IMG/VR virus record: IMGVR_UViG_3300037129_000090 | Reading direction: 5' to 3' (one strand) | Length of the DNA: 13,060 nucleotides | From: a virus | Taxonomy: Duplodnaviria > Heunggongvirae > Uroviricota > Caudoviricetes | Shown here: in pieces, positions 2 to 11,695 of the stretch | Numbering within the stretch: position 1 is the first letter of the stretch | Layout of the letters: the number at the start of each line of letters is the position of its first letter | Position numbers and translations under genes: made by a program | Notes under the pieces: model-generated | What the model was told of the DNA's origin: nothing | Seen by the model: only the letters and a program-made list of their open reading frames with translations | Database searches by the model: none

Positions 2-850
2 GCTCTTATCACTCTGGATTTAAAAGGGGAGAGTATAGACTTAATGTCCTCAAGTAGGGAGAGGCTTCTCGATATTCACCAATCAAGTTTTAACAGAATA
101 ATAAAAACAATATTGGCAAACCCCAAAAGTATAGTAGACAAGGGGCATACACTAACAGTAGACAAATATTCAATGAGAGAGGCTCTTGAATTCAAAAAAG
201 AAATACAGAAAACAGAATCTTATGAAGTGTCGGAAGCTGTCGATTCTGCAATAAGGGCATTAGAGAGGGGCGATAAATCAGAATTGGATTACCTTTTAAA
301 TAAGGTTGAATCCTTAGACGAAAACGTCGCCGGAAGACTTAGGTTAATAGTCGGCGGGTTCTTTGTATCTGATATGGGATACAATTTTGTAGTATATCGA
401 GATGGGGAGAAAAAAGCAGCTATAGACCCGACATCTCCAAAAGCACAAACAATTTTACATGTTTGGAAGAGAGTAGTCGAACAGGTTATGAAGGATAACC
501 AAATAAATGAAAATGTAATAGTAGGTTTGACATTTTCACCATCAGCAGAAGCAAGTCACACTGCAACAAGAAATTTATTAGGTGAAACAGAACACCATAT
601 ATTAATAAATCCTACAGTAGTTGAAAAATATTCAGATGCGGTAGACTTGGGGTTCTTCCTACATGATAGGGCTTGCCATGAATTAGCACATATCAGGATT
701 GAAGACCACTATGAAAATTTCTGTCTCCTGTGGCTGAAATACATGAATGCAAGAAGCAAAGACAGCAAAAAATACATAAACATGTTCAGGAAAGCTAAAG
801 AAGAAATTAACCTTAAAATAAGGAATAGCGAAAAGAAACAGGCAAAATAA
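2..850 (+). CDS. 5'-truncated protein with C-terminal HExxH zinc-metallopeptidase-like domain (WLM/YgjP/SprT-like)
   Basis: The frame is open from base 2 (ALITLDLKGESIDL) into the tracked Met at 44, so the gene probably starts upstream. Motif HELAHIRIEDH (HExxH-x5-H) is followed by YENFCLLW. Confidence 0.65.
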   Translation, partial: ALITLDLKGESIDLMSSSRERLLDIHQSSFNRIIKTILANPKSIVDKGHTLTVDKYSMREALEFKKEIQKTESYEVSEAVDSAIRALERGDKSELDYLLNKVESLDENVAGRLRLIVGGFFVSDMGYNFVVYRDGEKKAAIDPTSPKAQTILHVWKRVVEQVMKDNQINENVIVGLTFSPSAEASHTATRNLLGETEHHILINPTVVEKYSDAVDLGFFLHDRACHELAHIRIEDHYENFCLLWLKYMNARSKDSKKYINMFRKAKEEINLKIRNSEKKQAK

Positions 851-1174: not shown

Positions 1175-1744
1175 ATGGATACGATTAGACCAAATGCGAC
1201 GGAAGACGGAACAACAAACGGCTTAAATTGGCTTCACATCTCGAATATGGGGAGCATAGAGGAGATGTTTAGTAAAGTTGGTAATAATCAATATCTAGCA
1301 ATTGCCTTTTATCCTAGTGGGCTTGTAAGAATCGGAGTAAAGGAAAAAGGAAAAAGTATGGATTGCTCAGAATCTTTAGTAAGTGTGTTCATTACTAAAG
1401 AACAGGATTTAGAGGCTCGAATCAATGAAGCAATAGAAAACAGAACATACAGAACAGTAAAACAACTTAATGAAGCGATACAAGAAACAAAGGAATACGA
1501 AAGGAAATTAAAGCAGATAATAAAAATGTCATGTGTTGAATCTTATTATATCATCAATCTGCAAAAACATAAAAAAGTATTAACAGAGATAGATGAAATG
1601 GAAAAGTACGCAAATGAAAACAATACAACAATACACTTTATTTGTGATAGTGTTATGTTGGCTTTTGATACTGGTCATGGAAAGAAACAGATTAAAGAAC
1701 CAAAGATAAAACCAATAGCCTTATATATGACAAATACATTATAG
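1175..1744 (+). CDS. Hypothetical protein, 189 aa; C-terminal segment shared with ORF 9940..10215
   Basis: CAGGAG RBS; 17/34 ungapped identity with the 9940 protein over KVLTEIDEMEKYANENNTTIHFICDSVMLAFDTG. Confidence 0.85.
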   Translation: MDTIRPNATEDGTTNGLNWLHISNMGSIEEMFSKVGNNQYLAIAFYPSGLVRIGVKEKGKSMDCSESLVSVFITKEQDLEARINEAIENRTYRTVKQLNEAIQETKEYERKLKQIIKMSCVESYYIINLQKHKKVLTEIDEMEKYANENNTTIHFICDSVMLAFDTGHGKKQIKEPKIKPIALYMTNTL

Positions 1745-1779
1745 TGTATGCAGTAATGCGATTAACGGAGATGATACAC

Positions 1780-2058
1780 ATGGTAATGGTAAACGGCATT
1801 GAATTAAAGAATGTTAAAAGTGCAAGAGGACATGAAGGCGACGGCGTAACAGCTAACGTTTACATGAACGGAAAAAAGATAGGCACGATTGAAGATTGGG
1901 GCGACGGCGGCGGAATGAATGTAAGCATAGAAAAGCCCTTTGTTGATGAATTCGATAGAAAATACGAGGCATACGTTAAGAAGTACATGGACGACAAGGA
2001 AGCTGATGAAAACTTATTCTTTAATGAAATGCTAGAGCTTATTAGAATCGAGAAGTGA
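1780..2058 (+). CDS. Hypothetical mobile-element protein (GHEG...GKKIG...GDGG motif), 92 aa; possibly the N-terminal part of an interrupted gene
   Basis: GGAGATG RBS at 1767-1773 supports ATG 1780 rather than GTG 1744. It ends in TGA, after which the same frame stays open to 2808. Confidence 0.75.
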   Translation: MVMVNGIELKNVKSARGHEGDGVTANVYMNGKKIGTIEDWGDGGGMNVSIEKPFVDEFDRKYEAYVKKYMDDKEADENLFFNEMLELIRIEK

Positions 2059-2163
2059 TATAAAGATGCTCAGAAAAAAGTAAATGGTGCGCCTCTCTCT
2101 CTGATTGCCATATACGAACTGGAAAAAGTAAAAGGACTCGGTTCTTGGTTTGAATTAACAGCA

Positions 2164-2808
2164 ATGGCAACAACAGCAAACGGTAATGAGAGAAATTACA
2201 TTGAGAGAATGAAAATAAAAGACAGTAAGATAGACAAATGCAAGATATTTCCATCTCTCAAAGAGTTCATAATCAACACTGAGGGTAAGGAGAAGACCTT
2301 TGAAACAATAATCTATACAAAGGAAAAACCTGAGAAGGTTATCTTTAAGGGAACTACAGAAAACCACGACCCTGACCCTCTGCTCTTTAAAGAGTTGTAT
2401 AGAAGAGAGAAAAACAACATTCTTGGTGTTATTCATAATGTGCAAAAAGGTTACTACCTGCAAGTTACCATGCACTATAGTTACTCTGGTAGTATCTGTA
2501 ATATGAAGATAATAAGACAAGGTAAAACTGAAAAGAATATCAATAACCATATTTCAATGAACATAGGAATGAAAGGCGGTAAAACAAACGATGAGCTAAG
2601 AAAAATGACAATTGAACAGCTTGATTCAATCATTCTGCCTATCATAGAACCATACGACAAAAGAGTAAAGCTAGAAAATATGGTAGCTGTGAAAGTCTGC
2701 TGTCCCTTCTGTGATAAAGTACAGTATGTCAATGAATCAAAATTATTCAAAAAGGAAATATGCAGTTGTGGAAAAGAGATAGAACCAATATTTGATATGA
2801 TAGAATAA
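2164..2808 (+). CDS. Composite hypothetical protein with C-terminal zinc ribbon (CPFC...CSC); true start uncertain
   Basis: No RBS before ATG 2164; the frame is open back to 2059. The C-terminal 42 aa from Met at 2680 align with ORF 3121..3258. Confidence 0.7.
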   Translation: MATTANGNERNYIERMKIKDSKIDKCKIFPSLKEFIINTEGKEKTFETIIYTKEKPEKVIFKGTTENHDPDPLLFKELYRREKNNILGVIHNVQKGYYLQVTMHYSYSGSICNMKIIRQGKTEKNINNHISMNIGMKGGKTNDELRKMTIEQLDSIILPIIEPYDKRVKLENMVAVKVCCPFCDKVQYVNESKLFKKEICSCGKEIEPIFDMIE

Positions 2809-2843
2809 CAAGGATAAGGAAACAAACAAGGAGATGAAAAAAT

Positions 2844-3107
2844 ATGTTTAAAGAAATGTACTTAAAAAAGAGAGATGAAATTCTCTCAACCCTCAAAAAC
2901 ATCGAAAAAGGAAACTACATACAGATCGCCTTCTTTAAGGACAGGATCGAGTTTGAAACTTCAAAACAGGGATTCGCTAGACTTTGGGTTGATGCAGTTG
3001 TTTCCTGTAATGTCGGAGTACGTATGAGACCGAGAGAGATAAGGAGAATAACAGCAGATAAACTGGATGAAATAGTCTTCAAAATCCTGAAACCATACGA
3101 AAATTAA
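2844..3107 (+). CDS. Hypothetical protein, 87 aa
   Basis: AAGGAGATG RBS; compact spacing. Confidence 0.8.
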   Translation: MFKEMYLKKRDEILSTLKNIEKGNYIQIAFFKDRIEFETSKQGFARLWVDAVVSCNVGVRMRPREIRRITADKLDEIVFKILKPYEN

Positions 3108-3120
3108 GGAGATGGTAAGC

Positions 3121-3258
3121 ATGGGTAAGGTAAAGGTGGAATGTCCTGAGTGCGGCGCAATAGATAAAGTTGATGAATCGGAATTCTTCAATGATGTTAT
3201 CTGTAAAGAATGCGGCGGAACGATAAAACCTGAAAGAGATATGATAAAGAGCATGTGA
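3121..3258 (+). CDS. Zinc-ribbon micro-protein, 45 aa (not in ORF track)
   Basis: MGKVKVECPECGAIDKVDESEFFNDVICKECGGTIKPERDMIKSM; AAGGAGATGG RBS; CxxC-x16-CxxC. Confidence 0.85.
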   Translation: MGKVKVECPECGAIDKVDESEFFNDVICKECGGTIKPERDMIKSM

Positions 3259-3262
3259 GGGT

Positions 3263-3290
3263 AAGGAGAGCTTTATCATCTCCTTTATTT
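3263..3290 (+). terminator. Putative hairpin/terminator
   Basis: AAGGAGA (3263-3269) / TCTCCTT (3279-3285), a 7-bp stem with 9-nt loop, followed by TATTT. Confidence 0.4.
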
Positions 3291-3300
3291 TAAAAGGCGG

Positions 3301-3621
3301 GTGGCATTAATGAGAGGAAGTAGACGTATAGACCCTTCAAAGTTTCCTGAGCTAATCGAATATGCACAGAGCTTAGGATTCGGCTTAGAATTTCCAACAT
3401 GTGTAACTGATAACACGCACTTTTTAGCACTTGCAGATAAGACTTGTTGTATTTCTGTAGCATATGAGGACGAAATATTTGGTTGTAATCCTTACATTGA
3501 TGTGTATATCCATGTCTTAGGAAACGGTAAATGTAACATGGAACAGGCAAAAGCAACATATGAAGCTTTTCCATCAGCAATTAAGATATTAGAGAGATTT
3601 ATAAAAGAAGTAGAGGTGTAA
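3301..3621 (+). CDS. Hypothetical protein, 106 aa (start GTG 3301 or ATG 3310)
   Basis: ORF track; fits the gene tiling; weak RBS. Confidence 0.7.
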   Translation: MALMRGSRRIDPSKFPELIEYAQSLGFGLEFPTCVTDNTHFLALADKTCCISVAYEDEIFGCNPYIDVYIHVLGNGKCNMEQAKATYEAFPSAIKILERFIKEVEV

Positions 3622-3623
3622 CA

Positions 3624-3911
3624 ATGGGATACATAAAAAATAAAATAATTTACGCTGAAATGGCTAGAAGGAAAGTACAATTCCATAAAAATGAGGATTG
3701 GAGTACCATAAAGCTATGGGGTTTATTCTCATGGGGTGCGGTTTCCAGAATGATTAATGATGGTAGGCTTAAAACTCCTAGTACGTACACGCGGGAGAAT
3801 AGAACAGTTTGGGTTTATCCTACTGCGGAAGTTTACGAAAAGCATATCAAACCGCTCATTGAGAAGTACACTCTTGAAGAACTTACAACGATGTCTGGTT
3901 GGGATGATTAA
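3624..3911 (+). CDS. Hypothetical protein, 95 aa
   Basis: GAGGTG RBS overlapping the end of the previous gene. Confidence 0.8.
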   Translation: MGYIKNKIIYAEMARRKVQFHKNEDWSTIKLWGLFSWGAVSRMINDGRLKTPSTYTRENRTVWVYPTAEVYEKHIKPLIEKYTLEELTTMSGWDD

Positions 3912-3913
3912 GC

Positions 3914-4144
3914 ATGTTTGGGCTATCACCTGAATTCTGGCAGTTTTTCACTAACTATATCACAAGTCAAATTCTGACCTTCCTAATAGCTCTTGTATTA
4001 GGTGCTATAGTCGCAGGGATACTTGTGTGGCTTGGTATTCACGAACAGAATGAGAAGGAAGCAGAGAAGCTTGAGTTAGCACAGAGAGAAGAGGAAGATA
4101 AGAAGAGGATAGAAGCAGATAACGCAAGAAAACATAGGAGTTAA
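3914..4144 (+). CDS. Small membrane-anchored protein, 76 aa
   Basis: Hydrophobic helix ILTFLIALVLGAIVAGILVWLGI followed by a charged E/K-rich tail. Confidence 0.75.
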   Translation: MFGLSPEFWQFFTNYITSQILTFLIALVLGAIVAGILVWLGIHEQNEKEAEKLELAQREEEDKKRIEADNARKHRS

Positions 4145-4147
4145 AAC

Positions 4148-4330
4148 ATGACAATATTTGATGATTTAGTAACAGCACTGGACGAAACAAACGATATTCC
4201 AGTAGACAATGAGATGAACATTGTGAGAAGACTTGAAGCACTGTACGCAAGACTTGAACCAAAATATACAAGAGAACAGATAAACGCGGCTCTTATGTTT
4301 GCTAATGTCGCTGTCAAATTAGAGAAATAA
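4148..4330 (+). CDS. Hypothetical protein, 60 aa
   Basis: AGGAG RBS; 3-nt gap after the previous stop. Confidence 0.75.
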   Translation: MTIFDDLVTALDETNDIPVDNEMNIVRRLEALYARLEPKYTREQINAALMFANVAVKLEK

Positions 4331-4365
4331 AGAGGTTTTAAGTTCCCTTAGATTAAAGCAACAGC

Positions 4366-4405
4366 ATTATAACCAATCTATTTATATATGATTACTGCGT
4401 TATAG
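4366..4405 (+). promoter_or_regulatory. Archaeal-type promoter, class B copy 1
   Basis: ATTATAACCAAT-cta-TTTATATATG-N7-CGTTATAG; same blocks and spacing as 9722-9761. Confidence 0.75.
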
Positions 4406-4430
4406 GTATATGGCAAAGGAGATGATACTT

Positions 4431-4601
4431 ATGAGTGATAAACTAACACTGGAACTTAAAAAGGAATTCGGTACTATTGCAGAAATGATTGAATACCTTG
4501 AACGAATGACAGCAGACATTAAGAACGGTAAAATAGCGGAAACTCCGACATGGCAGATATATATAGCGGAAGCGGAAGATTCAGAATTCAATGAGAGATG
4601 A
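4431..4601 (+). CDS. Hypothetical protein, 56 aa
   Basis: AAAGGAGATGAT RBS supports ATG 4431 (track start 4410); ATGA overlap with the next gene. Confidence 0.75.
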   Translation: MSDKLTLELKKEFGTIAEMIEYLERMTADIKNGKIAETPTWQIYIAEAEDSEFNER

Positions 4602-4789
4602 TAAAGATGCTATTCAATTGTTGTGATGGGTGCGGTGCGCTGTATGCCTTGAAACACGCTTCAAGTAGAAATAGATACACTAAAGAAAATATAACAGAGC
4701 GATTTTATTACTGTCCGGTGTGTGGATGTTCAATAAGTCTTCTTAAACGAGAATCACAAGAAGAGTACGACGCAAACCCATTTATGTAA
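4598..4789 (+). CDS. Zinc-ribbon protein (CDGC...CPVC); start 4598 or 4607
   Basis: Two CxxC knuckles; ATGA coupling. Confidence 0.8.
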   Translation: MIKMLFNCCDGCGALYALKHASSRNRYTKENITERFYYCPVCGCSISLLKRESQEEYDANPFM

Positions 4790-4813
4790 ATCAGGGTAAG
4801 GAGATGATAATCA

Positions 4814-5404
4814 ATGGTTCAAAAAGCAATGGAAGTTTATAAGAGCTTCGAGGAATGGAGAGAAGAAAACGATGACGGTAATCAGTTTATTGTATATATG
4901 TTTGATGATGCTCAGATAGACATAACAGGGCTTGATTTCTGTTATCCTGCAAACATGGAAGCAGTAAGAAAAATGTTTCTTGCTCACGATGTCGTATTTA
5001 CAGAATCACCGGCTGAGTTTCAGGCTGAAATTATTGCGCTTCAAAAAGAGCTTAGGGTAGATACTTACTTTATGCAAGAGAGGTATCAAGACTTGTATAT
5101 AAAGGAGAGATATGAGCCTGTCTACAATTACATAGACAGAAACCTTGTTGAAAAAACAGTCAGTGAAAACTTCGATGTCCTTGTGCCGTATTTCGTAAAA
5201 GGTGAATCTTTCGTAATAAAGCCACTGATCAGCATGTTCAAATATTCTGATCTTATGCTTATGTATCTCAGTATCCTCAGAGTTCAGGGTAAGGTAAGCA
5301 ATGAGGAACTAAGGATATACGGCGACCTCACAGAGGACTTAATCTTTGACTATACCAGAGAGAAGCTTGTACCGAGGATTAAACAAATTCAACCGGAAGA
5401 GTAA
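4814..5404 (+). CDS. Hypothetical protein, 196 aa
   Basis: GGGTAAGGAGATGAT RBS; long ORF; no motif recognised. Confidence 0.85.
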   Translation: MVQKAMEVYKSFEEWREENDDGNQFIVYMFDDAQIDITGLDFCYPANMEAVRKMFLAHDVVFTESPAEFQAEIIALQKELRVDTYFMQERYQDLYIKERYEPVYNYIDRNLVEKTVSENFDVLVPYFVKGESFVIKPLISMFKYSDLMLMYLSILRVQGKVSNEELRIYGDLTEDLIFDYTREKLVPRIKQIQPEE

Positions 5405-5421
5405 ATAAGTGAGGTTTGACT

Positions 5422-5886
5422 ATGGAGGGTAATGAAGAGGGTAAGGAGAAGACAGAAGCGATAAACGATGCGGCGGCATTAATTAACTTCATGGAATACT
5501 GGAATGCAATATTGGAAGACCGTGAAGAAACATTCAAGAAAATTGACAGTCAAATGATTTCTCTTGAAAAACGCATGGAAGAGAAACGTATTAGAGAAAT
5601 TTGCGGAGACAGAAGCTATGAATTTATGCATATACGTATGCGCGAACACACACGCTTGCACTCGGTATGGAAAGACGACAGAAACGGTGAGAGTATCGTT
5701 ATTCATGGGATGTTTTCAGGAGACGAAGGCTTTATTATCCCACTTCAAACATTAAGCCGCCGCCCCGAACTGAACACAGATGCTTATCTGAAATTCTGGC
5801 AAAATCAGGTAGGTAAGCCGATGCATGAGATTAAGTTAATCCTCATTGGAATAAATCAAAAAGAGATAGTGAACGGAGATTATTAA
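5422..5886 (+). CDS. Hypothetical protein; C-terminal domain paralogous to ORF 6275..6550
   Basis: GTGAGGT RBS (ATG 5422 or TTG 5416); 17/40 ungapped identity around YLKFWQ with the 6275 protein. Confidence 0.85.
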   Translation: MEGNEEGKEKTEAINDAAALINFMEYWNAILEDREETFKKIDSQMISLEKRMEEKRIREICGDRSYEFMHIRMREHTRLHSVWKDDRNGESIVIHGMFSGDEGFIIPLQTLSRRPELNTDAYLKFWQNQVGKPMHEIKLILIGINQKEIVNGDY

Positions 5887-5888
5887 CT

Positions 5889-6278
5889 ATGGAAGAACCA
5901 CTTTTAAGAGAACTGATACAAGAGGGCTTAATGGATGAAGCTGAACAAAAATTACGTAATATCATTACAAAGATGGATATTGTAATTGATAGGCTCACTT
6001 GTGTTAAAAACATTCTTAACCTGAAAGTAGAGGATGTTGAACCAAATACTGAGATGTTTCGAGCTAAAACAAAGATAGGTGCAATAATAAGAACGCTGAC
6101 AAAAGAAGGGATAACAGAGAAGCAGAGACAATTATTCGATGATGCATTAGAGCTTGCAGAATCCGCCGAAAAACATACTAGGTGGATTAGAGAAGAGCTT
6201 GGAAATGACGAACCATGTAGGGCTGAAACTGATATACTAACTGTAATTCACATGTTACGGAATATGAAATACAGATGA
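5889..6278 (+). CDS. Hypothetical helical protein, 129 aa
   Basis: CGGAGA RBS; ATGA overlap with the next gene. Confidence 0.8.
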   Translation: MEEPLLRELIQEGLMDEAEQKLRNIITKMDIVIDRLTCVKNILNLKVEDVEPNTEMFRAKTKIGAIIRTLTKEGITEKQRQLFDDALELAESAEKHTRWIREELGNDEPCRAETDILTVIHMLRNMKYR

Positions 6279-6550
6279 GGACTGATACTATGACTAAACA
6301 CGGAAACTATAGGCTTACAGTGGTTGAACTTATCTATAATGAAAAAATGAACACTTACTCATTATGGGGAAGAATCGGCACTCTTAGAACAGGAGTAACA
6401 AAAATACGGTTACAGTCATTGAAACCTGAACAAGAAGCAAATAAAGAGAAGTATCTGCAATTCTGGCAGAAACGCATAGGGTTGAAAGAATGTGAGGTTG
6501 AACTGATTCACGCGGGGCTAAATCAAGAATGTGAAATAAGGAAAGCTTGA
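6275..6550 (+). CDS. Hypothetical protein, YLQFWQ-domain paralog (start 6275 or 6290)
   Basis: Paralogy with 5422..5886; gene tiling. Confidence 0.85.
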   Translation: MRTDTMTKHGNYRLTVVELIYNEKMNTYSLWGRIGTLRTGVTKIRLQSLKPEQEANKEKYLQFWQKRIGLKECEVELIHAGLNQECEIRKA

Positions 6551-6551
6551 T

Positions 6552-6716
6552 ATGGCAGAATTTATAGAATGTCCGGTAGGTTGTGGTTATCGTTGCTCAG
6601 GTTGTGCAATATGCGGCGCGCCCGCTAATCATTATAACTCAACATGCAAAGAGTGTATGGAATGCTTAGAAGCAACTCAAAAATTCTTTAAAATAATAAT
6701 GGAGGTAAACAAATGA
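6552..6716 (+). CDS. Cys-rich micro-protein, 54 aa, 8 Cys (not in ORF track)
   Basis: MAEFIECPVGCGYRCSGCAICGAPANHYNSTCKECMECLEATQKFFKIIMEVNK; starts 2 nt after the previous stop and ends in an ATGA overlap with 6713. Confidence 0.8.
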   Translation: MAEFIECPVGCGYRCSGCAICGAPANHYNSTCKECMECLEATQKFFKIIMEVNK

Positions 6717-6988
6717 AAGCAAATCTAATTTACAAAGGTGTTATCAATGGTGATTTCCGCTTTATGCCAATTGAAGTTGCCTGTAGGGATGATATTAAGG
6801 TCATTATGAGTACACTAATGATTTATAAGAATTCATCGCAACAGTGTCTTGATGTGACTTTAAGCGACTGTAATATGCCTATCCCTAGACATGACTGGTT
6901 TACGTCAGACGAAAACGAAGGAAGCACTGTATTTGAGCGATTTCAGGTATATGAGCTTGTTGGTGTCGATTTTTACGAAGACCAATAA
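6713..6988 (+). CDS. Hypothetical protein, tandem paralog A1, 91 aa
   Basis: GGAGGT RBS; 34/89 ungapped identity to 7072..7341. Confidence 0.9.
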   Translation: MKANLIYKGVINGDFRFMPIEVACRDDIKVIMSTLMIYKNSSQQCLDVTLSDCNMPIPRHDWFTSDENEGSTVFERFQVYELVGVDFYEDQ

Positions 6989-6989
6989 T

Positions 6990-7048
6990 TAACAAAACAA
7001 CAAACAATATACTTATATACATTGAAGTGCTAGTATTGTATAGAAGCA
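6990..7048 (+). repeat. 59-bp promoter cassette, copy 1 (class A)
   Basis: 57/59 identical to 7351-7409, with a 44-bp core (7005-7048) identical; contains CTTATATA and TATACA-N15-TGTATA. Confidence 0.95.
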
Positions 7049-7071
7049 TATTAAATAAGGAGATGATAGTC

Positions 7072-7341
7072 ATGTATGCTAAACTTATTTATTTAGGGAT
7101 GATAGATGGCACACTTGAATATAATACAATAAGGGTAGATTCCATAGATGATGTACGCATGATAATGAAATGCTTAGAAGATAGCACGACTCAAAATAGG
7201 AAGGAATTGAACGTACCTATGGAAGATAAAAATGAAAATATTCCATTAGTTAATTGGTTTTCAAAGGACATAAAGGAAGACGGCGAAACACTAACACGAT
7301 TCCAGATGTATAGACTTGTTGGTGTCGATTTAATTAAGTAA
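7072..7341 (+). CDS. Hypothetical protein, tandem paralog A2, 89 aa
   Basis: AAGGAGATGAT RBS at 7057-7067 and N-terminal alignment to A1 give start 7072, not 7027. Confidence 0.9.
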   Translation: MYAKLIYLGMIDGTLEYNTIRVDSIDDVRMIMKCLEDSTTQNRKELNVPMEDKNENIPLVNWFSKDIKEDGETLTRFQMYRLVGVDLIK

Positions 7342-7350
7342 AATGCAATA

Positions 7351-7409
7351 TAACAAAATAACAACCAATATACTTATATACATTGAAGTGCTAGTATTGT
7401 ATAGAAGCA
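7351..7409 (+). repeat. 59-bp promoter cassette, copy 2 (class A)
   Basis: Direct repeat of 6990-7048 at a 361-bp period; AACCAAT-ata-CTTATATA. Confidence 0.95.
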
Positions 7410-7433
7410 AAATAAAACAAGGAGATGAAAGTT

Positions 7434-7712
7434 ATGGCAAATGGTTTAAAGAAACAGATTCTTGATATACTCACAAATGGAAATATGACAGCAGATGAAC
7501 TTGTATCTAAAATCGCAGATACTTCAAATTCAACAACTCAGAGTAACGGTAATGGTAAAATCAGGCACAAACAACCTATCCACAAAGTAACCGGAATCGG
7601 TAGAATCAATAATGCCTGTAGGCATCTTGTTAAACAGGGTAAAATCACCATGACAAGGGAAGCTAAGGCTAAAGGCACTAACGTTTTCACATGCTCTTAT
7701 CAAAAAGTTTAA
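7434..7712 (+). CDS. Putative winged helix-turn-helix DNA-binding protein
   Basis: KQILDILTNGNMTADELVSKI ... RINNACRHLVKQGKI pattern of helices and wing, with a polar insertion; AAGGAGATG RBS supports ATG 7434. Confidence 0.6.
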   Translation: MANGLKKQILDILTNGNMTADELVSKIADTSNSTTQSNGNGKIRHKQPIHKVTGIGRINNACRHLVKQGKITMTREAKAKGTNVFTCSYQKV

Positions 7713-7724
7713 GGAGAGATAGTT

Positions 7725-8364
7725 ATGAGTAGAGAAGTTGTGTTTTTCTTTCGTAACGATGCAGAAGATGGTGGTAGAGATTGGATAAAATATCTCTCAG
7801 TCGGTGAAAGAGACATCGGCGCAGGACACGGTTTAAGTATCTGCGGTGCTTGTTTCATCGGAGAGAACTTAAAAGAGATTGACACGAAAACAGTTACTAC
7901 ATTCCTTAAGAAAAAGGAATTGAAGACTCTCTTTAATTATGAAATTGAAATGAGAGAGCTTGGATGGAACATAAAAGATGATTCTGTAAAGATGGCAAAG
8001 GCTACTGAACTCTTCAAAACCATCGAACCTATCATCGAAAAGCTCAAGTCAGAAGAGAATAAAAAATTCTTTGAGAATAAGATTCTTCCAGATGAAATGG
8101 AATATCTCAAGGATGAATTTAGTCTCTGATGAAGACCTTGAAACTATATTCAATGAATACTATCAGGAATATAGGGATAGAGCGGTCGTAAATTACGTCT
8201 ATGACAATGTTGAGGACTTGGGAAGATCGAGAGCAGAAGATTTTGGTGTTGTAGAAGAACACTATGAGCAGTATTTCGACTTTGAGGAATTCGGTAGCGA
8301 TTTGCTGAATGACGAGGAATACATTAAACTCAGCGACGGTAGGGTTGCGAGCGTATCCTATTGA
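7725..8364 (+). pseudogene. Single gene split by a frameshift at ~8124-8128; acidic ArdA-like C-terminal region
   Basis: The frame of 7725 ends ...DEFSL-TGA (8127-8129) and the +1 frame continues SDEDLETIFNEYY...YFDFEEFGSDL. The second part has no RBS or credible start. 23 of its last 78 aa are D/E. Confidence 0.7.
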
Positions 8365-8382
8365 GAGGGCTTGAATCCTCTC
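8363..8382 (+). terminator. Putative hairpin after the split gene
   Basis: GAGAGG (8363-8368) / CCTCTC (8377-8382), followed by TAATTTAATTT. Confidence 0.4.
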
Positions 8383-8409
8383 TAATTTAATTTAAGGAGA
8401 TGAAAGACG

Positions 8410-8580
8410 ATGGTCTTAACAAATGAAGAGGTCTTTAAAATCATCGGTGCAAAAATTATCAGTATTGAGCTTAATAATTCAGGTGACCGGATAGAAGAGA
8501 TTCACATAAAGACACGCAGCGGTGAGAATTTAATTATTATCGGCGGTGCTTGTGAGACCTTAGAAGTTCTGAGTAAATAA
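8410..8580 (+). CDS. Hypothetical protein, 56 aa (not in ORF track)
   Basis: MVLTNEEVFKIIGAKIISIELNNSGDRIEEIHIKTRSGENLIIIGGACETLEVLSK; AAGGAGATG RBS; fills the gap. Confidence 0.8.
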   Translation: MVLTNEEVFKIIGAKIISIELNNSGDRIEEIHIKTRSGENLIIIGGACETLEVLSK

Positions 8581-8593
8581 GGAGATGGGATAA

Positions 8594-8776
8594 ATGTTTA
8601 AAAATATACTACAAATGTTTAATAATCTCTTGAACAACATAAAACAGATTACTTCAAGCAAATGCGAATACGAGAAGACATGCACACACTATAGAGAGAA
8701 TTCACATAACTGCAATCACGAACCTGAGAACTGTGGAATATTCAAGAGAACTAAGAGAGGTTTAATAAAAAAATAA
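8594..8776 (+). CDS. Cys-motif micro-protein (CEYxxTCTHY...CxxEPxxC), 60 aa
   Basis: AAGGAGATGG RBS; motif shared with 8793..8918. Confidence 0.8.
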   Translation: MFKNILQMFNNLLNNIKQITSSKCEYEKTCTHYRENSHNCNHEPENCGIFKRTKRGLIKK

Positions 8777-8792
8777 TCAGGAGATGATAATA

Positions 8793-8918
8793 ATGGCTTG
8801 TGAATATAGATACACATGCACTTGCTATAAAACAGAAGCAGAAAAATGTAAGAATGACCCGCAGAAATGCGTAAAATACGTACAAATAATATTAAATCAT
8901 TGCGGAAAACAGTATTGA
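8793..8918 (+). CDS. Cys-motif micro-protein, 41 aa (not in ORF track)
   Basis: MACEYRYTCTCYKTEAEKCKNDPQKCVKYVQIILNHCGKQY; CAGGAGATGAT RBS. Confidence 0.8.
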   Translation: MACEYRYTCTCYKTEAEKCKNDPQKCVKYVQIILNHCGKQY

Positions 8919-8930
8919 GAGGTGGTAACT

Positions 8931-9113
8931 ATGAAACTTTCGGATGACACAATAACTGAGAGAGAAATGCTAAGTAAGAAATATAGAACACTAGCGGCTG
9001 AACTCATTGCATTTAATGACAAATGTAGGGCAGAGATGGAAACTATCGGAAACAGGCTAAGAGAAATTTCACAGATGGAGAGAGATAATAATGCAGGGAC
9101 AGGAGCAAGTTGA
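8931..9113 (+). CDS. Small coiled-coil-like protein, 60 aa
   Basis: GAGGTGG RBS supports ATG 8931. Confidence 0.7.
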   Translation: MKLSDDTITEREMLSKKYRTLAAELIAFNDKCRAEMETIGNRLREISQMERDNNAGTGAS

Positions 9114-9345
9114 ACTGTGTAAACAGATAATCACTGACCTTTATAATCTTGCAGCTATGAATGAGATGTTTGGAGCTTTGCGATTTATGACACCGGATGA
9201 AAAAGTACATGAAGCTCTTGATATACTGATATTCAATGGATACCTGATAGTAGACAGTGAATTCTATTTCAGGCTTACCGATAAAGGTGTCGGTGCTTAC
9301 CTGTTTGGATTCGAGAATGCAGAAAAGATATTTGAAAATCTTTAA
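9091..9345 (+). CDS. Putative winged-helix protein, 84 aa
   Basis: VHEALDILIFNGYL-x7-RLTDKG matches the recognition helix plus wing (L..GY/L...LTxKG) of wHTH domains. Confidence 0.55.
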   Translation: MQGQEQVELCKQIITDLYNLAAMNEMFGALRFMTPDEKVHEALDILIFNGYLIVDSEFYFRLTDKGVGAYLFGFENAEKIFENL

Positions 9346-9357
9346 TGGAGTGGTGAC

Positions 9358-9717
9358 ATGGGGATTAACTGGAAAAACGTTAAATCATTTCTTTATGAAT
9401 CCAAATTCATAATTTTATTGTATGTTATAGGAGATTGGGCGACTACAGCATACGCTTTACCTGTCGGCGCGGAATACAATTATGTACCCTCTTTAATTCT
9501 TGTTAGAGCAGGTATTTATGGCTTGCTAGTTGCGAAATTTGTGTTTGTTATATTACTTTATTGGGGTTACATTAATTGGGTCTCTAATAATAAACAGGTA
9601 ATATACTGGAAATTATTAAAGCATTTCATTGAAATTGTTGGTGTATTTTTAGTAACTAATAATCTAATGGTTATCATGTTTGGTAATAGCTTAATTCAAG
9701 TCATGGGACTTGTTTAA
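9358..9717 (+). CDS. Multi-pass membrane protein, DUF5658-like
   Basis: Three to four hydrophobic segments; GDWATTAYAL..GAEYN resembles the D-x-x-T-T...G-x-E-x-N signature I recall for DUF5658 (not searched). Confidence 0.55.
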   Translation: MGINWKNVKSFLYESKFIILLYVIGDWATTAYALPVGAEYNYVPSLILVRAGIYGLLVAKFVFVILLYWGYINWVSNNKQVIYWKLLKHFIEIVGVFLVTNNLMVIMFGNSLIQVMGLV

Positions 9718-9721
9718 CAAT

Positions 9722-9761
9722 ATTATAACCAATAGTTTTATATATGTATCTTACGTTATAG
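9722..9761 (+). promoter_or_regulatory. Archaeal-type promoter, class B copy 2
   Basis: ATTATAACCAAT-agt-TTTATATATG-N7-CGTTATAG; same blocks and spacing as 4366-4405. Confidence 0.75.
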
Positions 9762-9792
9762 TGTATGCTAGAATACAACGGAGGTTTAGCAT

Positions 9793-9924
9793 ATGGAGAT
9801 AATCAAAAAGATGGAAGAGCAACTAGATGGGACTTTTAAAGAAGTCGAACATAAAGTAGCAGAAACGAAGGAAGAGAAACACGAAATGCTTATGAGATGG
9901 AAAGAAAAGAACGGCTCGAAATAA
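9793..9924 (+). CDS. Charged micro-protein, 43 aa (not in ORF track)
   Basis: MEIIKKMEEQLDGTFKEVEHKVAETKEEKHEMLMRWKEKNGSK; CGGAGGT RBS; first gene after promoter B2. Confidence 0.75.
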   Translation: MEIIKKMEEQLDGTFKEVEHKVAETKEEKHEMLMRWKEKNGSK

Positions 9925-9939
9925 AGGAGATGATATAAA

Positions 9940-10215
9940 GTGCCTTGTACTAATTGTACTGATTGTAATTGTGTGAAAAACTCACAAGATGAACAGAAGA
10001 AACTTGCAGAAATTAAAGCAATGGAAACGCTTGCGAATCAGAACAATACAGAAATTCACTGGTTTGCAGATTTTGCTTACGTTTCGTTTAATACTGGCAT
10101 AGAAGACCCTGAGACAGATGAAGAGATGAAGATAGGTAAAATGATAAGGGATATGACGTTTGAGAGCTTACAGAGCTTCATAAGCGACTGTAAATTGGAG
10201 ATGGCTAGTAATTGA
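9940..10215 (+). CDS. Hypothetical protein with N-terminal CxxCxxCxC and a domain shared with 1175..1744
   Basis: AAGGAGATGAT RBS; GTG start; internal paralogy. Confidence 0.8.
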   Translation: MPCTNCTDCNCVKNSQDEQKKLAEIKAMETLANQNNTEIHWFADFAYVSFNTGIEDPETDEEMKIGKMIRDMTFESLQSFISDCKLEMASN

Positions 10216-10245
10216 ACGTTGACAAGAAATAAGGAGATGGTAAGT

Positions 10246-10987: not shown

Positions 10988-11386
10988 ATGATTGACCATA
11001 AAATTATAGTTCCAGAGTGTAAACGCATACTTGAGCTAATGAATACGATAACCAAAAAGACTACTAGGAAAGATATAAAGGAAATAGCAAATATCGTATC
11101 GGCTACCACAAGGGAATGGCTGTACGCTGATGCTACTTTGAGAATACAAATTGAATTTCTTTGTATCTCTCCGATTGGTGATAGGGAACACTTGTTAAAT
11201 ACGGTTGATTCTGTAAAAGCGCGATTGAATGAGCTAATCAGTGACCCTTCCGACTTCGGAAAATTGAGTTGGCAACCTAAGAAGGAAAGCAAACCTATCT
11301 CTCATGTTTTCACAAAATCAGAAAACGTTAAGATGTGGGAAGCACTGAAAGCAAAATACAGTCAAAATCTGGATGATTGGCTTTAA
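10988..11386 (+). CDS. Hypothetical protein, 132 aa
   Basis: AAGGAGATGG RBS. Confidence 0.8.
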   Translation: MIDHKIIVPECKRILELMNTITKKTTRKDIKEIANIVSATTREWLYADATLRIQIEFLCISPIGDREHLLNTVDSVKARLNELISDPSDFGKLSWQPKKESKPISHVFTKSENVKMWEALKAKYSQNLDDWL

Positions 11387-11399
11387 GGAGGTTAAAAGC

Positions 11400-11573
11400 A
11401 TGGCAACAGGTGAATGTCCGGTGTGTGGCACTGAAATAATAAATCAGTGTGGTATAGATGAGCTAATCGAATATTCTCTCAATGTTGAATATTGGGAAGA
11501 GAAAGCAGCTAAAATATGTGAAATAATCGCTAGAATGAGAAGCAGGGTAAGGAGAACAAGGAGAATGAGCTAA
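11400..11573 (+). CDS. Small protein with CPVCG knuckle; C-terminus possibly frameshifted
   Basis: AAGGAGGT RBS supports ATG 11400; the Arg-rich tail looks off-frame. Confidence 0.65.
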   Translation: MATGECPVCGTEIINQCGIDELIEYSLNVEYWEEKAAKICEIIARMRSRVRRTRRMS

Positions 11574-11695
11574 AAATATGGTACTTCGAGGGCATAAAGA
11601 TTCATAATAACTATCTCATGTTTGCAGAATTCGGTAGACAGAGATGTCTTGAAACATGAAGAGAGAATAAGTAAATTGGTAAGGAGATAAGAATT

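Follow-up and report, generated by a model that had tools for sequence, protein, structure and literature searches.

Paralog pairs in an array of small genes

We analyzed a 13,060-nucleotide (nt) window, by which we mean the whole stretch of DNA studied, from virus record IMGVR_UViG_3300037129_000090. It is one arm of a hypervariable region of small genes (ORFans) in a virus-like element of at least 77 kb (77,060 bp) with archaeal transcription signals; about 40 of the 77 kb of this parent element were read. The window carries 38 co-oriented genes on the plus strand, most of which encode fewer than 200 amino acids (aa) and have strong AGGAG-type ribosome-binding sites (RBSs); genes are named here by the window position at which they start. 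Since the window sequence is 100% identical across independent Logan and Joint Genome Institute (JGI) assemblies, with a single mismatch in L003, it is not an assembly artefact.

The original prediction claimed that five pairs of paralogous genes or domains are packed into this window at an unusual density. We compared all 38 window proteins with one another by Smith-Waterman alignment (703 pairs), scored the top pairs against 5000 composition-preserving shuffles, and derived Bonferroni-corrected Gumbel p-values. All five pairs were significant, with no shuffle equaling any of their scores: 6713/7072 (34/89 identical, ungapped, exactly the predicted count; p 5e-14), the C-terminus of 1175 with 9940 (20/49; p 5e-6), the C-terminus of 5422 with 6275 (18/42; p 1e-5), the C-terminus of 2164 with 3121 (20/43; p 1e-4), and, marginally, the cysteine-rich pair 8594/8793 (10/24; p 0.01). 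A sixth pair that the original prediction had overlooked links residues 74-165 of 2164 to the whole of 2844 (p 5e-9), while the next-best pairs after these six were not significant (p >=0.2). The paired copies are 27-47% identical at the protein level, and their synonymous sites are near saturation (proportion of differing synonymous sites, pS, 0.63-0.88). Searches of Pfam and PHROGs gave no family for any paired module, apart from weak generic zinc-ribbon matches for 3121. A relationship between the C-terminal half of 9940 and the 2844 family was rejected as weak and inconsistent (3, 88, and 1239 of 3000 shuffles).

The density of pairs was assessed against 70 control loci, 69 around homologs of the window's HATPase gene and one from a relative, using a uniform but crude pipeline scaled to 13 kb. 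This pipeline, which misses both 2164 pairs, recovered 4 pairs from 4 families in the window, compared to a control median of 0 and mean of 0.77. The window thus lies within the top ~5% of the control loci, and the three controls that score higher do so via expansion of one or two families. Because most controls are less dense in small genes, this enrichment is approximate; only 6 controls are as rich in small genes as the window, and one of these 6 exceeds it. Two control loci (L114:1790-12153 and L120:5992-9568) carry three or four dispersed ~190-aa paralogs, 40-63% identical, near the HATPase gene. Taken together, these data indicate that the original observation was right and understated.

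Cassettes, fusions and splits at the paired genes

A ~100-bp cassette that combines a TATA box with an RBS occurs in six plus-strand copies (seven motif matches versus 0.3 expected), including those at 1689-1782, 4350-4433, 6990-7071 (P1), 7351-7433 (P2), and 9706-9795, the copies at 4350 and 9706 belonging to the same family. Two of these cassettes bracket gene 7072. Gene 6713 (6713-6988), the resident copy, has a 79% identical ortholog in the relative L158, and gene 7072 (7072-7341) aligns with it without gaps at 38% identity; the two share one and the same 17-mer close to their 3' ends and have a pS of 0.88 across the first 75 codons. A cassette follows each gene, P1 after 6713 and P2 after 7072, with P2 preceding a winged helix-turn-helix (wHTH)-like gene (7434-7712). 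P1 and P2 match at 56/60 positions and share an identical 44-nt core, compared to 28-41/60 for other cassette pairs; given the pS of 0.88 between the genes, the doubling of the cassette is therefore much younger than their divergence.

In L158, which is ~85% identical to the window at the nucleotide level, the 6713 ortholog is followed by a single cassette and then the wHTH-like gene, and exactly the 361-bp unit of cassette plus 7072 (6999-7359) is absent; the first 35 nt of L158 were ignored as a probable chimeric assembly. The single L158 cassette is chimeric, with a P1-like left end and a P2-like right end, and it deviates at five core positions where P1 equals P2. The simplest reading is that a distant homolog was recently inserted as the 7072 unit or that conversion took place recently between the cassettes; it is also possible that L158 deleted the unit. 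No terminator-like hairpin was found at any cassette in a bacterial-style scan, whose reach does not extend to T-tract archaeal terminators. The predicted structure of 6713 (pLDDT 89 in one of five models, from four sequences) has template modelling (TM) scores of 0.61-0.63 to unnamed tailed-virus clusters.

Gene 1175 (1175-1744) is a fusion that comprises residues 1-113, a truncated 9940-like part (residues 118-167), and a tail encoded through a promoter cassette. Gene 9940 (9940-10215) is the intact, stand-alone counterpart and has an 88% identical ortholog in L158. Two stand-alone proteins of 114-115 aa from relatives, P0193 (87% identical) and P0194, match residues 1-113 of 1175 and then end, while the 9940-like part of 1175 begins at Met118, just behind a degenerate stop and Shine-Dalgarno (SD) sequence at 1505-1528. 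The ends of P0193 and P0194 (LRS or LRRL) would back-translate to the SD of the element, in which case one added base would suffice to join the two frames. After ~50 aa the similarity to 9940 stops, and the open frame continues across the cassette at 1689-1744. At this cassette, synteny with the relative L010 breaks down, L010 having another gene upstream. This fusion is specific to the present strain (a cluster of one member).

The second fusion is now split. A gene of family X (150-170 aa, without a Pfam family) at 1780-2282 is interrupted by an in-frame TGA at 2056-2058, and gene 2164 (2164-2808) consists of the X tail, a former spacer and linker, a 2844-like part (2383-2658), and a 3121-like zinc ribbon (2680-2805). 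It thus holds homologs of both downstream neighbors, the separate genes 2844 and 3121 (2844-3258), in the same order. In three other database sequences, 1780 and 2164 form one protein of 342-345 aa, and the relatives encode Arg where the window has TGA and Thr where it has the ATG at 2164. The first ~167 residues of the fusion correspond to the widespread stand-alone family X (197 matches among 1.8 billion representatives; model pLDDT 85), which ends precisely at 2280-2293, where an out-of-frame stop precedes an SD-like 13-mer that also occurs after 3121 and at 5437. The joint between the 2844-like and 3121-like parts measures 24 nt, compared to a 22-nt spacer between the separate genes. Given the coincidence of the X boundary with this fossil stop and SD, and the similar length of joint and spacer, the long protein therefore arose by two read-throughs between neighbors. 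What had been taken for an unrelated partner in 2164 is thus nothing but the end of its upstream gene, 1780. The TGA is more simply explained as a recent nonsense change than as programmed read-through, as relatives have Arg at this position.

The X+2844-like+3121-like fusion is retained in a lineage only 66% identical, and its 2844-like and 3121-like parts and linker are under purifying selection (ratio of nonsynonymous to synonymous substitution rates, dN/dS, 0-0.27). In the window, 2164 has no RBS of its own and the worst RBS score of all, and the gene may be silent in this strain. The relative L155 carries a single fused 2844/3121 unit followed by a hairpin, as after 3121 here, a gene shared with L010, and then the SNF2 gene. 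In L155 the SNF2 gene sits just downstream of the fused unit, whereas in the present element it belongs to the other arm; both the number and the position of units therefore vary. The fusion protein had no match among INPHARED phages.

Several side observations concern this region. Both splitting changes are C-to-T at CpG relative to L010 (CGA to TGA and ACG to ATG), so the changes at 2056-2058 and 2164-2166 may hint at cytosine methylation. The hairpin after 3121 (3259-3290), which L155 has conserved, sequesters an SD-like motif. A resolvase that the protein database shows fused to 2164 (P0002, L011:1528-2541) was set aside as a probable chimeric assembly, in that 100% identity begins abruptly at a shared short word.

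The original prediction also held that in several cases a domain occurs once nearly alone and once fused to an unrelated partner. This appears to hold for 5422/6275 and fails for 2164, whose partner is its own neighbor. Genes 5422 (5422-5886) and 6275 (6275-6550) share a C-terminal module of ~42 aa (about 5737-5862 and 6404-6529, respectively), and attempts to extend the homology into the N-terminal halves failed, the upstream parts being unrelated. From the alignments, this pair looks like the sole true shared-module case among the fusions, and the sharing would fit an old exchange within 3' ends. Genes 8594 and 8793 are adjacent (8594-8918) and share a 24-aa Cys motif. Since both partners of 5422/6275 and of 8594/8793 are present in L158, both pairs predate the split from this relative; the L158 copy of 5422 is frameshifted in a CA run. 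A recount of 8793 gave 2 synonymous and 3 nonsynonymous codons. The assignment of its 41-aa product (8793-8918) to a cluster of 389-aa Fic proteins, to which it is unrelated, is probably an artefact of the clustering.

Gene turnover and how the array may have formed

Relative to L158 and L010 (~85% nucleotide identity), we identified nine gene-level gains, losses, or swaps. Promoter cassettes account for two of the nine (1689 and 6999-7359) and SD or start signals for six (3624, 4595, 6552, 8581, 11390, and 11696); the remaining one is a deletion that leaves both gene ends (remnant 10213-10225). At one of the SD-bounded differences, the SD is exactly repeated, in direct orientation, around the inserted gene. 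Copy number also differs from the relatives, with two copies versus one for both 6713/7072 and 2844/3121. These differences bear out the claim of an active, fast-turnover region. Whole-gene pairwise dN/dS values, which come from few alleles, range from 0 to 0.52 and are all below 1, which speaks for purifying selection and gives no sign of positive selection at the level of whole genes. Along the array, synonymous divergence (dS) varies between 0.09 and 1.4, a pattern of mosaic ancestry, and alternative alleles can be very divergent between close relatives (37% identity for 5889, 48% for 9091). Gene 11373 (11373-11690) is shorter than its 114-aa L158 ortholog, and the apparently intergenic DNA downstream is its remnant.

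We consider it probable (about 0.68) that recombination at shared short sequences, read-through fusion and fission, and purifying selection together explain the pairs. Whole genes would enter and leave by recombination at the ~100-bp cassette, at a strong SD/start motif, or within homologous 3' ends, and such exchange would sometimes place a distant homolog beside a resident copy, as with 7072 next to 6713. Closely packed neighbors could then fuse when an indel of 1-2 nt lets translation pass an old stop and RBS (1175; X+2844-like+3121-like), and genes could split again by nonsense or frameshift changes, as with X and the ArdA-like gene in this strain and with 5422 in L158, with purifying selection keeping many products over long times. 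The data show the pairs, where the breakpoints lie, the alternative alleles in relatives, and dN/dS values below 1; we infer that the recombination was guided by sequence rather than filtered by selection, and likewise the direction of each event.

Several points weigh against this account. Random recombination followed by selection would likewise place breakpoints at gene borders, and the cassette was used by only two of the nine. The informative relatives number only three, all partial contigs. In L158, a 100-N gap (with a 55-nt overlap) interrupts the scaffold immediately ahead of the 6713 ortholog, and sequence could be hidden there. No donor of 7072 was found. For 1175, the fossil SD is weak taken alone (rank 7 of 90 internal starts by position weight matrix, PWM), and P0193 and P0194, known here as proteins only, may or may not be followed by a 9940-like gene; the fusion junctions were set by homolog boundaries, and RBS PWM ranks (12/8404, 7/90, and 46/90) do not single them out. 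None of the modules could be assigned a function, and no capsid or terminase gene was seen in the ~40 of 77 kb read.

The strongest competing explanation, which we regard as possible if less well supported, is non-homologous recombination at random sites followed by selection, such that the expression signals mark survivors rather than targets. This route is compatible with the SD-bounded events, six of the nine breakpoints share only 7-15 nt, and one deletion runs within a gene (remnant 10213-10225); mycobacteriophage work also prefers the random-site route where boundary sequences are absent (PMC3029335). However, it leaves unexplained the chimeric L158 cassette, the near-identity of P1 and P2, and the exact direct SD repeat that flanks an inserted gene.

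A bolder extension of the preferred recombination account, which we regard as rather doubtful, is that cassette and SD are dedicated exchange sites of an integrase-free gene capture in methanogen viruses, with single genes moving as small circles. If this extension were true, tight packing would make captured neighbors into new multi-domain proteins, some of them retained by selection, and the array would be a nursery for archaeal host-takeover factors.

Modular domain shuffling under positive selection from host conflict, as originally proposed, appears unlikely as a whole. The shuffling part stands for 5422/6275, which share only a C-terminal module on unrelated N-termini, but the other two fusions (1175 and 2164) arose when the frame ran through from one neighbor into the next, these having once been separate genes, and 2164, with its poor RBS, may lack translation here. 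Host-conflict selection is plausible from context, namely an ArdA-like gene in the array, and the divergent alleles of 5889 and 9091 would fit it, but every whole-gene dN/dS is below 1. It is similarly unlikely that the array is decaying debris in which inserted genes drift and break and fusions are neutral accidents. Two split genes here and one in L158, the truncated 11373, and the promoter-derived tail and strain-unique status of the 1175 fusion would fit such decay, but purifying selection still acts on orthologs, among them the 2844-like and 3121-like parts of the fusion with their linker, and the X fusion persists in the 66% identical lineage.

Still less probable is a gene accordion, in which one gene is transiently amplified in tandem and then collapses. 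The tandem layout of 6713/7072 and 2164/2844/3121 and the one-versus-two units between relatives recall one, yet there are no near-identical tandem copies: the copies are ancient by their near-saturated synonymous sites, three of the six pairs are non-adjacent, and assemblies of this strain are base-identical and agree in copy number, with the proviso that contigs from short reads may drop rare amplified variants. Chance similarity or assembly artefact, to which the marginal 8594/8793 pair and the apparent L011 chimera might point, is refuted for five of the six pairs by their significance, the identical independent assemblies, and the orthologs of both partners in relatives, and has virtually no likelihood left.

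Parent element, probable host and known systems

The enrichment of the TATA-type cassette (7 versus 0.3), in contrast with sigma-70 sites, which were not enriched in our scan (42 observed versus 49.4 expected), points to an archaeal host, and the element is a probable methanogen virus. A 514-aa HATPase gene (window 44-850; L001:7143-8687) fuses an HATPase_c_3 domain to a C-terminal HExxH region; its homologs, 25-48% identical, occur on many large viral contigs (100-400 kb), including IMG/VR contigs, and one at 43% identity is recorded from a Methanogenium metagenome-assembled genome. These IMG/VR homologs and the match of the predicted 6713 fold to Uroviricota clusters are indirect hints of a tailed virus. 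IMG/VR scans with 7072, the promoter motif, and a single HATPase revealed no close relative.

Just upstream of the window, a ~1.5-kb non-coding stretch with inverted CG-rich repeats (L001:5590-7140) separates two divergent gene arrays. The other arm is a divergent small-gene array of more than 20 kb with an SNF2 helicase and has 2 significant paralog pairs among 43 genes. A stand-alone partial copy of the SNF2 ATPase domain (113-114 aa), 43% identical to the full helicase of the same element, lies upstream of that helicase (L012:9255-9599 and 11026-13368); it is also present in the distant relative L024 (2265-2606) and is therefore old and retained. The second other-arm pair (L012:18996-19487 and L018:12800-13324) is ~32% identical, and the genes directly upstream of its members are weakly, not significantly, alike. 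L024 keeps the order of helicase, gap, and HATPase, with similar CG-rich repeats at the corresponding place (L024:2606-3488), and has essentially no downstream small genes in common with the window.

Recognizable cargo in the window is limited to the ArdA-like gene, the wHTH-like gene, and zinc ribbons. The ArdA-like gene (7725-8364) is frameshifted by about 2 missing nt near 8120 and is a single 215-aa open reading frame in L158; its 3' part matches Pfam ArdA at 30.7 bits (cut-off 27), while the intact L158 allele scores 22.4 bits, below the cut-off. A hairpin follows it at 8363-8383. This allele had no match in INPHARED phages, and gene 9358 had none in plasmids. PDB fold searches with X and 6713 gave only Z scores below 5, which are uninformative and no evidence of a new fold, and ESM Atlas feature searches gave no usable result. 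The position beside an origin-like gap, the repeated promoters, and the ArdA-like gene incline us slightly towards regarding the array proteins as early host-interaction proteins.

Hypervariable ORFan regions are where viruses acquire host-takeover and anti-defense genes, but it is seldom possible to reconstruct single gain, fusion, and fission events in them. In the present case, three close relatives reveal the steps at base resolution, and the analysis yields a list of conserved, uncharacterized small proteins. Among known systems, the poxvirus gene accordion (K3L type) relies on near-identical, transient tandem copies. The present array resembles it in tandem related genes and variable unit number, but its copies are old, divergent, and fixed. 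Integron arrays consist of co-oriented small genes that are gained and lost singly by a tyrosine integrase at attC sites; small co-oriented genes also come and go singly here, but the junctions are expression signals, no integrase was found among the genes called in the ~40 kb read, and neither an attC-like site nor a recurrent palindromic site was found between window genes.

The array is closer to the PeSL (promoter early stem-loop) regions of T4-type phages, where repeated ~100-bp promoter cassettes likewise populate an ORFan-rich hyperplastic region (PMC2839356). Of the 14 ORFans that differ between RB49 and phi1, 10 lie next to a PeSL (Arbiol et al. 2010, PMC2839356), and RB49 ORF192, an ORFan between two cassettes where phi1 has one chimeric cassette, parallels 7072 compared with L158. 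In contrast, the cassette here is of archaeal type (TATA box plus RBS), without sigma-70 enrichment or a stem-loop terminator found, and only two of nine breakpoints lie at a cassette. Among Cluster I mycobacteriophages, gene 68 of Island3 is similarly an extra gene, missing in a relative, whose 3' end matches that of the upstream gene 67 at the DNA level, and recombination across ~50 bp of boundary sequence has been modeled (PMC3029335); 6713 and 7072 differ from these in being homologous over their full length, with a shared stretch that continues into the promoter. In one part of the genome of HGTV-1, an archaeal halovirus, genes are likewise preceded by a repeated TATA motif, for which a PeSL-like shuffling role was proposed from resemblance (review PMC3950731). 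The host group is different, the motif precedes only some genes, and a matching indel in relatives is seen here. In its mode of action the array is comparable to PeSL or boundary-sequence shuffling, although the cassette itself does not qualify as a PeSL. The shuffling is real, concerns mostly whole genes, and is accompanied by fusion and fission through read-through. The process is known from bacterial viruses, and what is added here is its stepwise trace in close relatives. Cassette-guided shuffling, which for an archaeal virus we found only as a proposal by resemblance, also gains comparative support from this probable methanogen virus.

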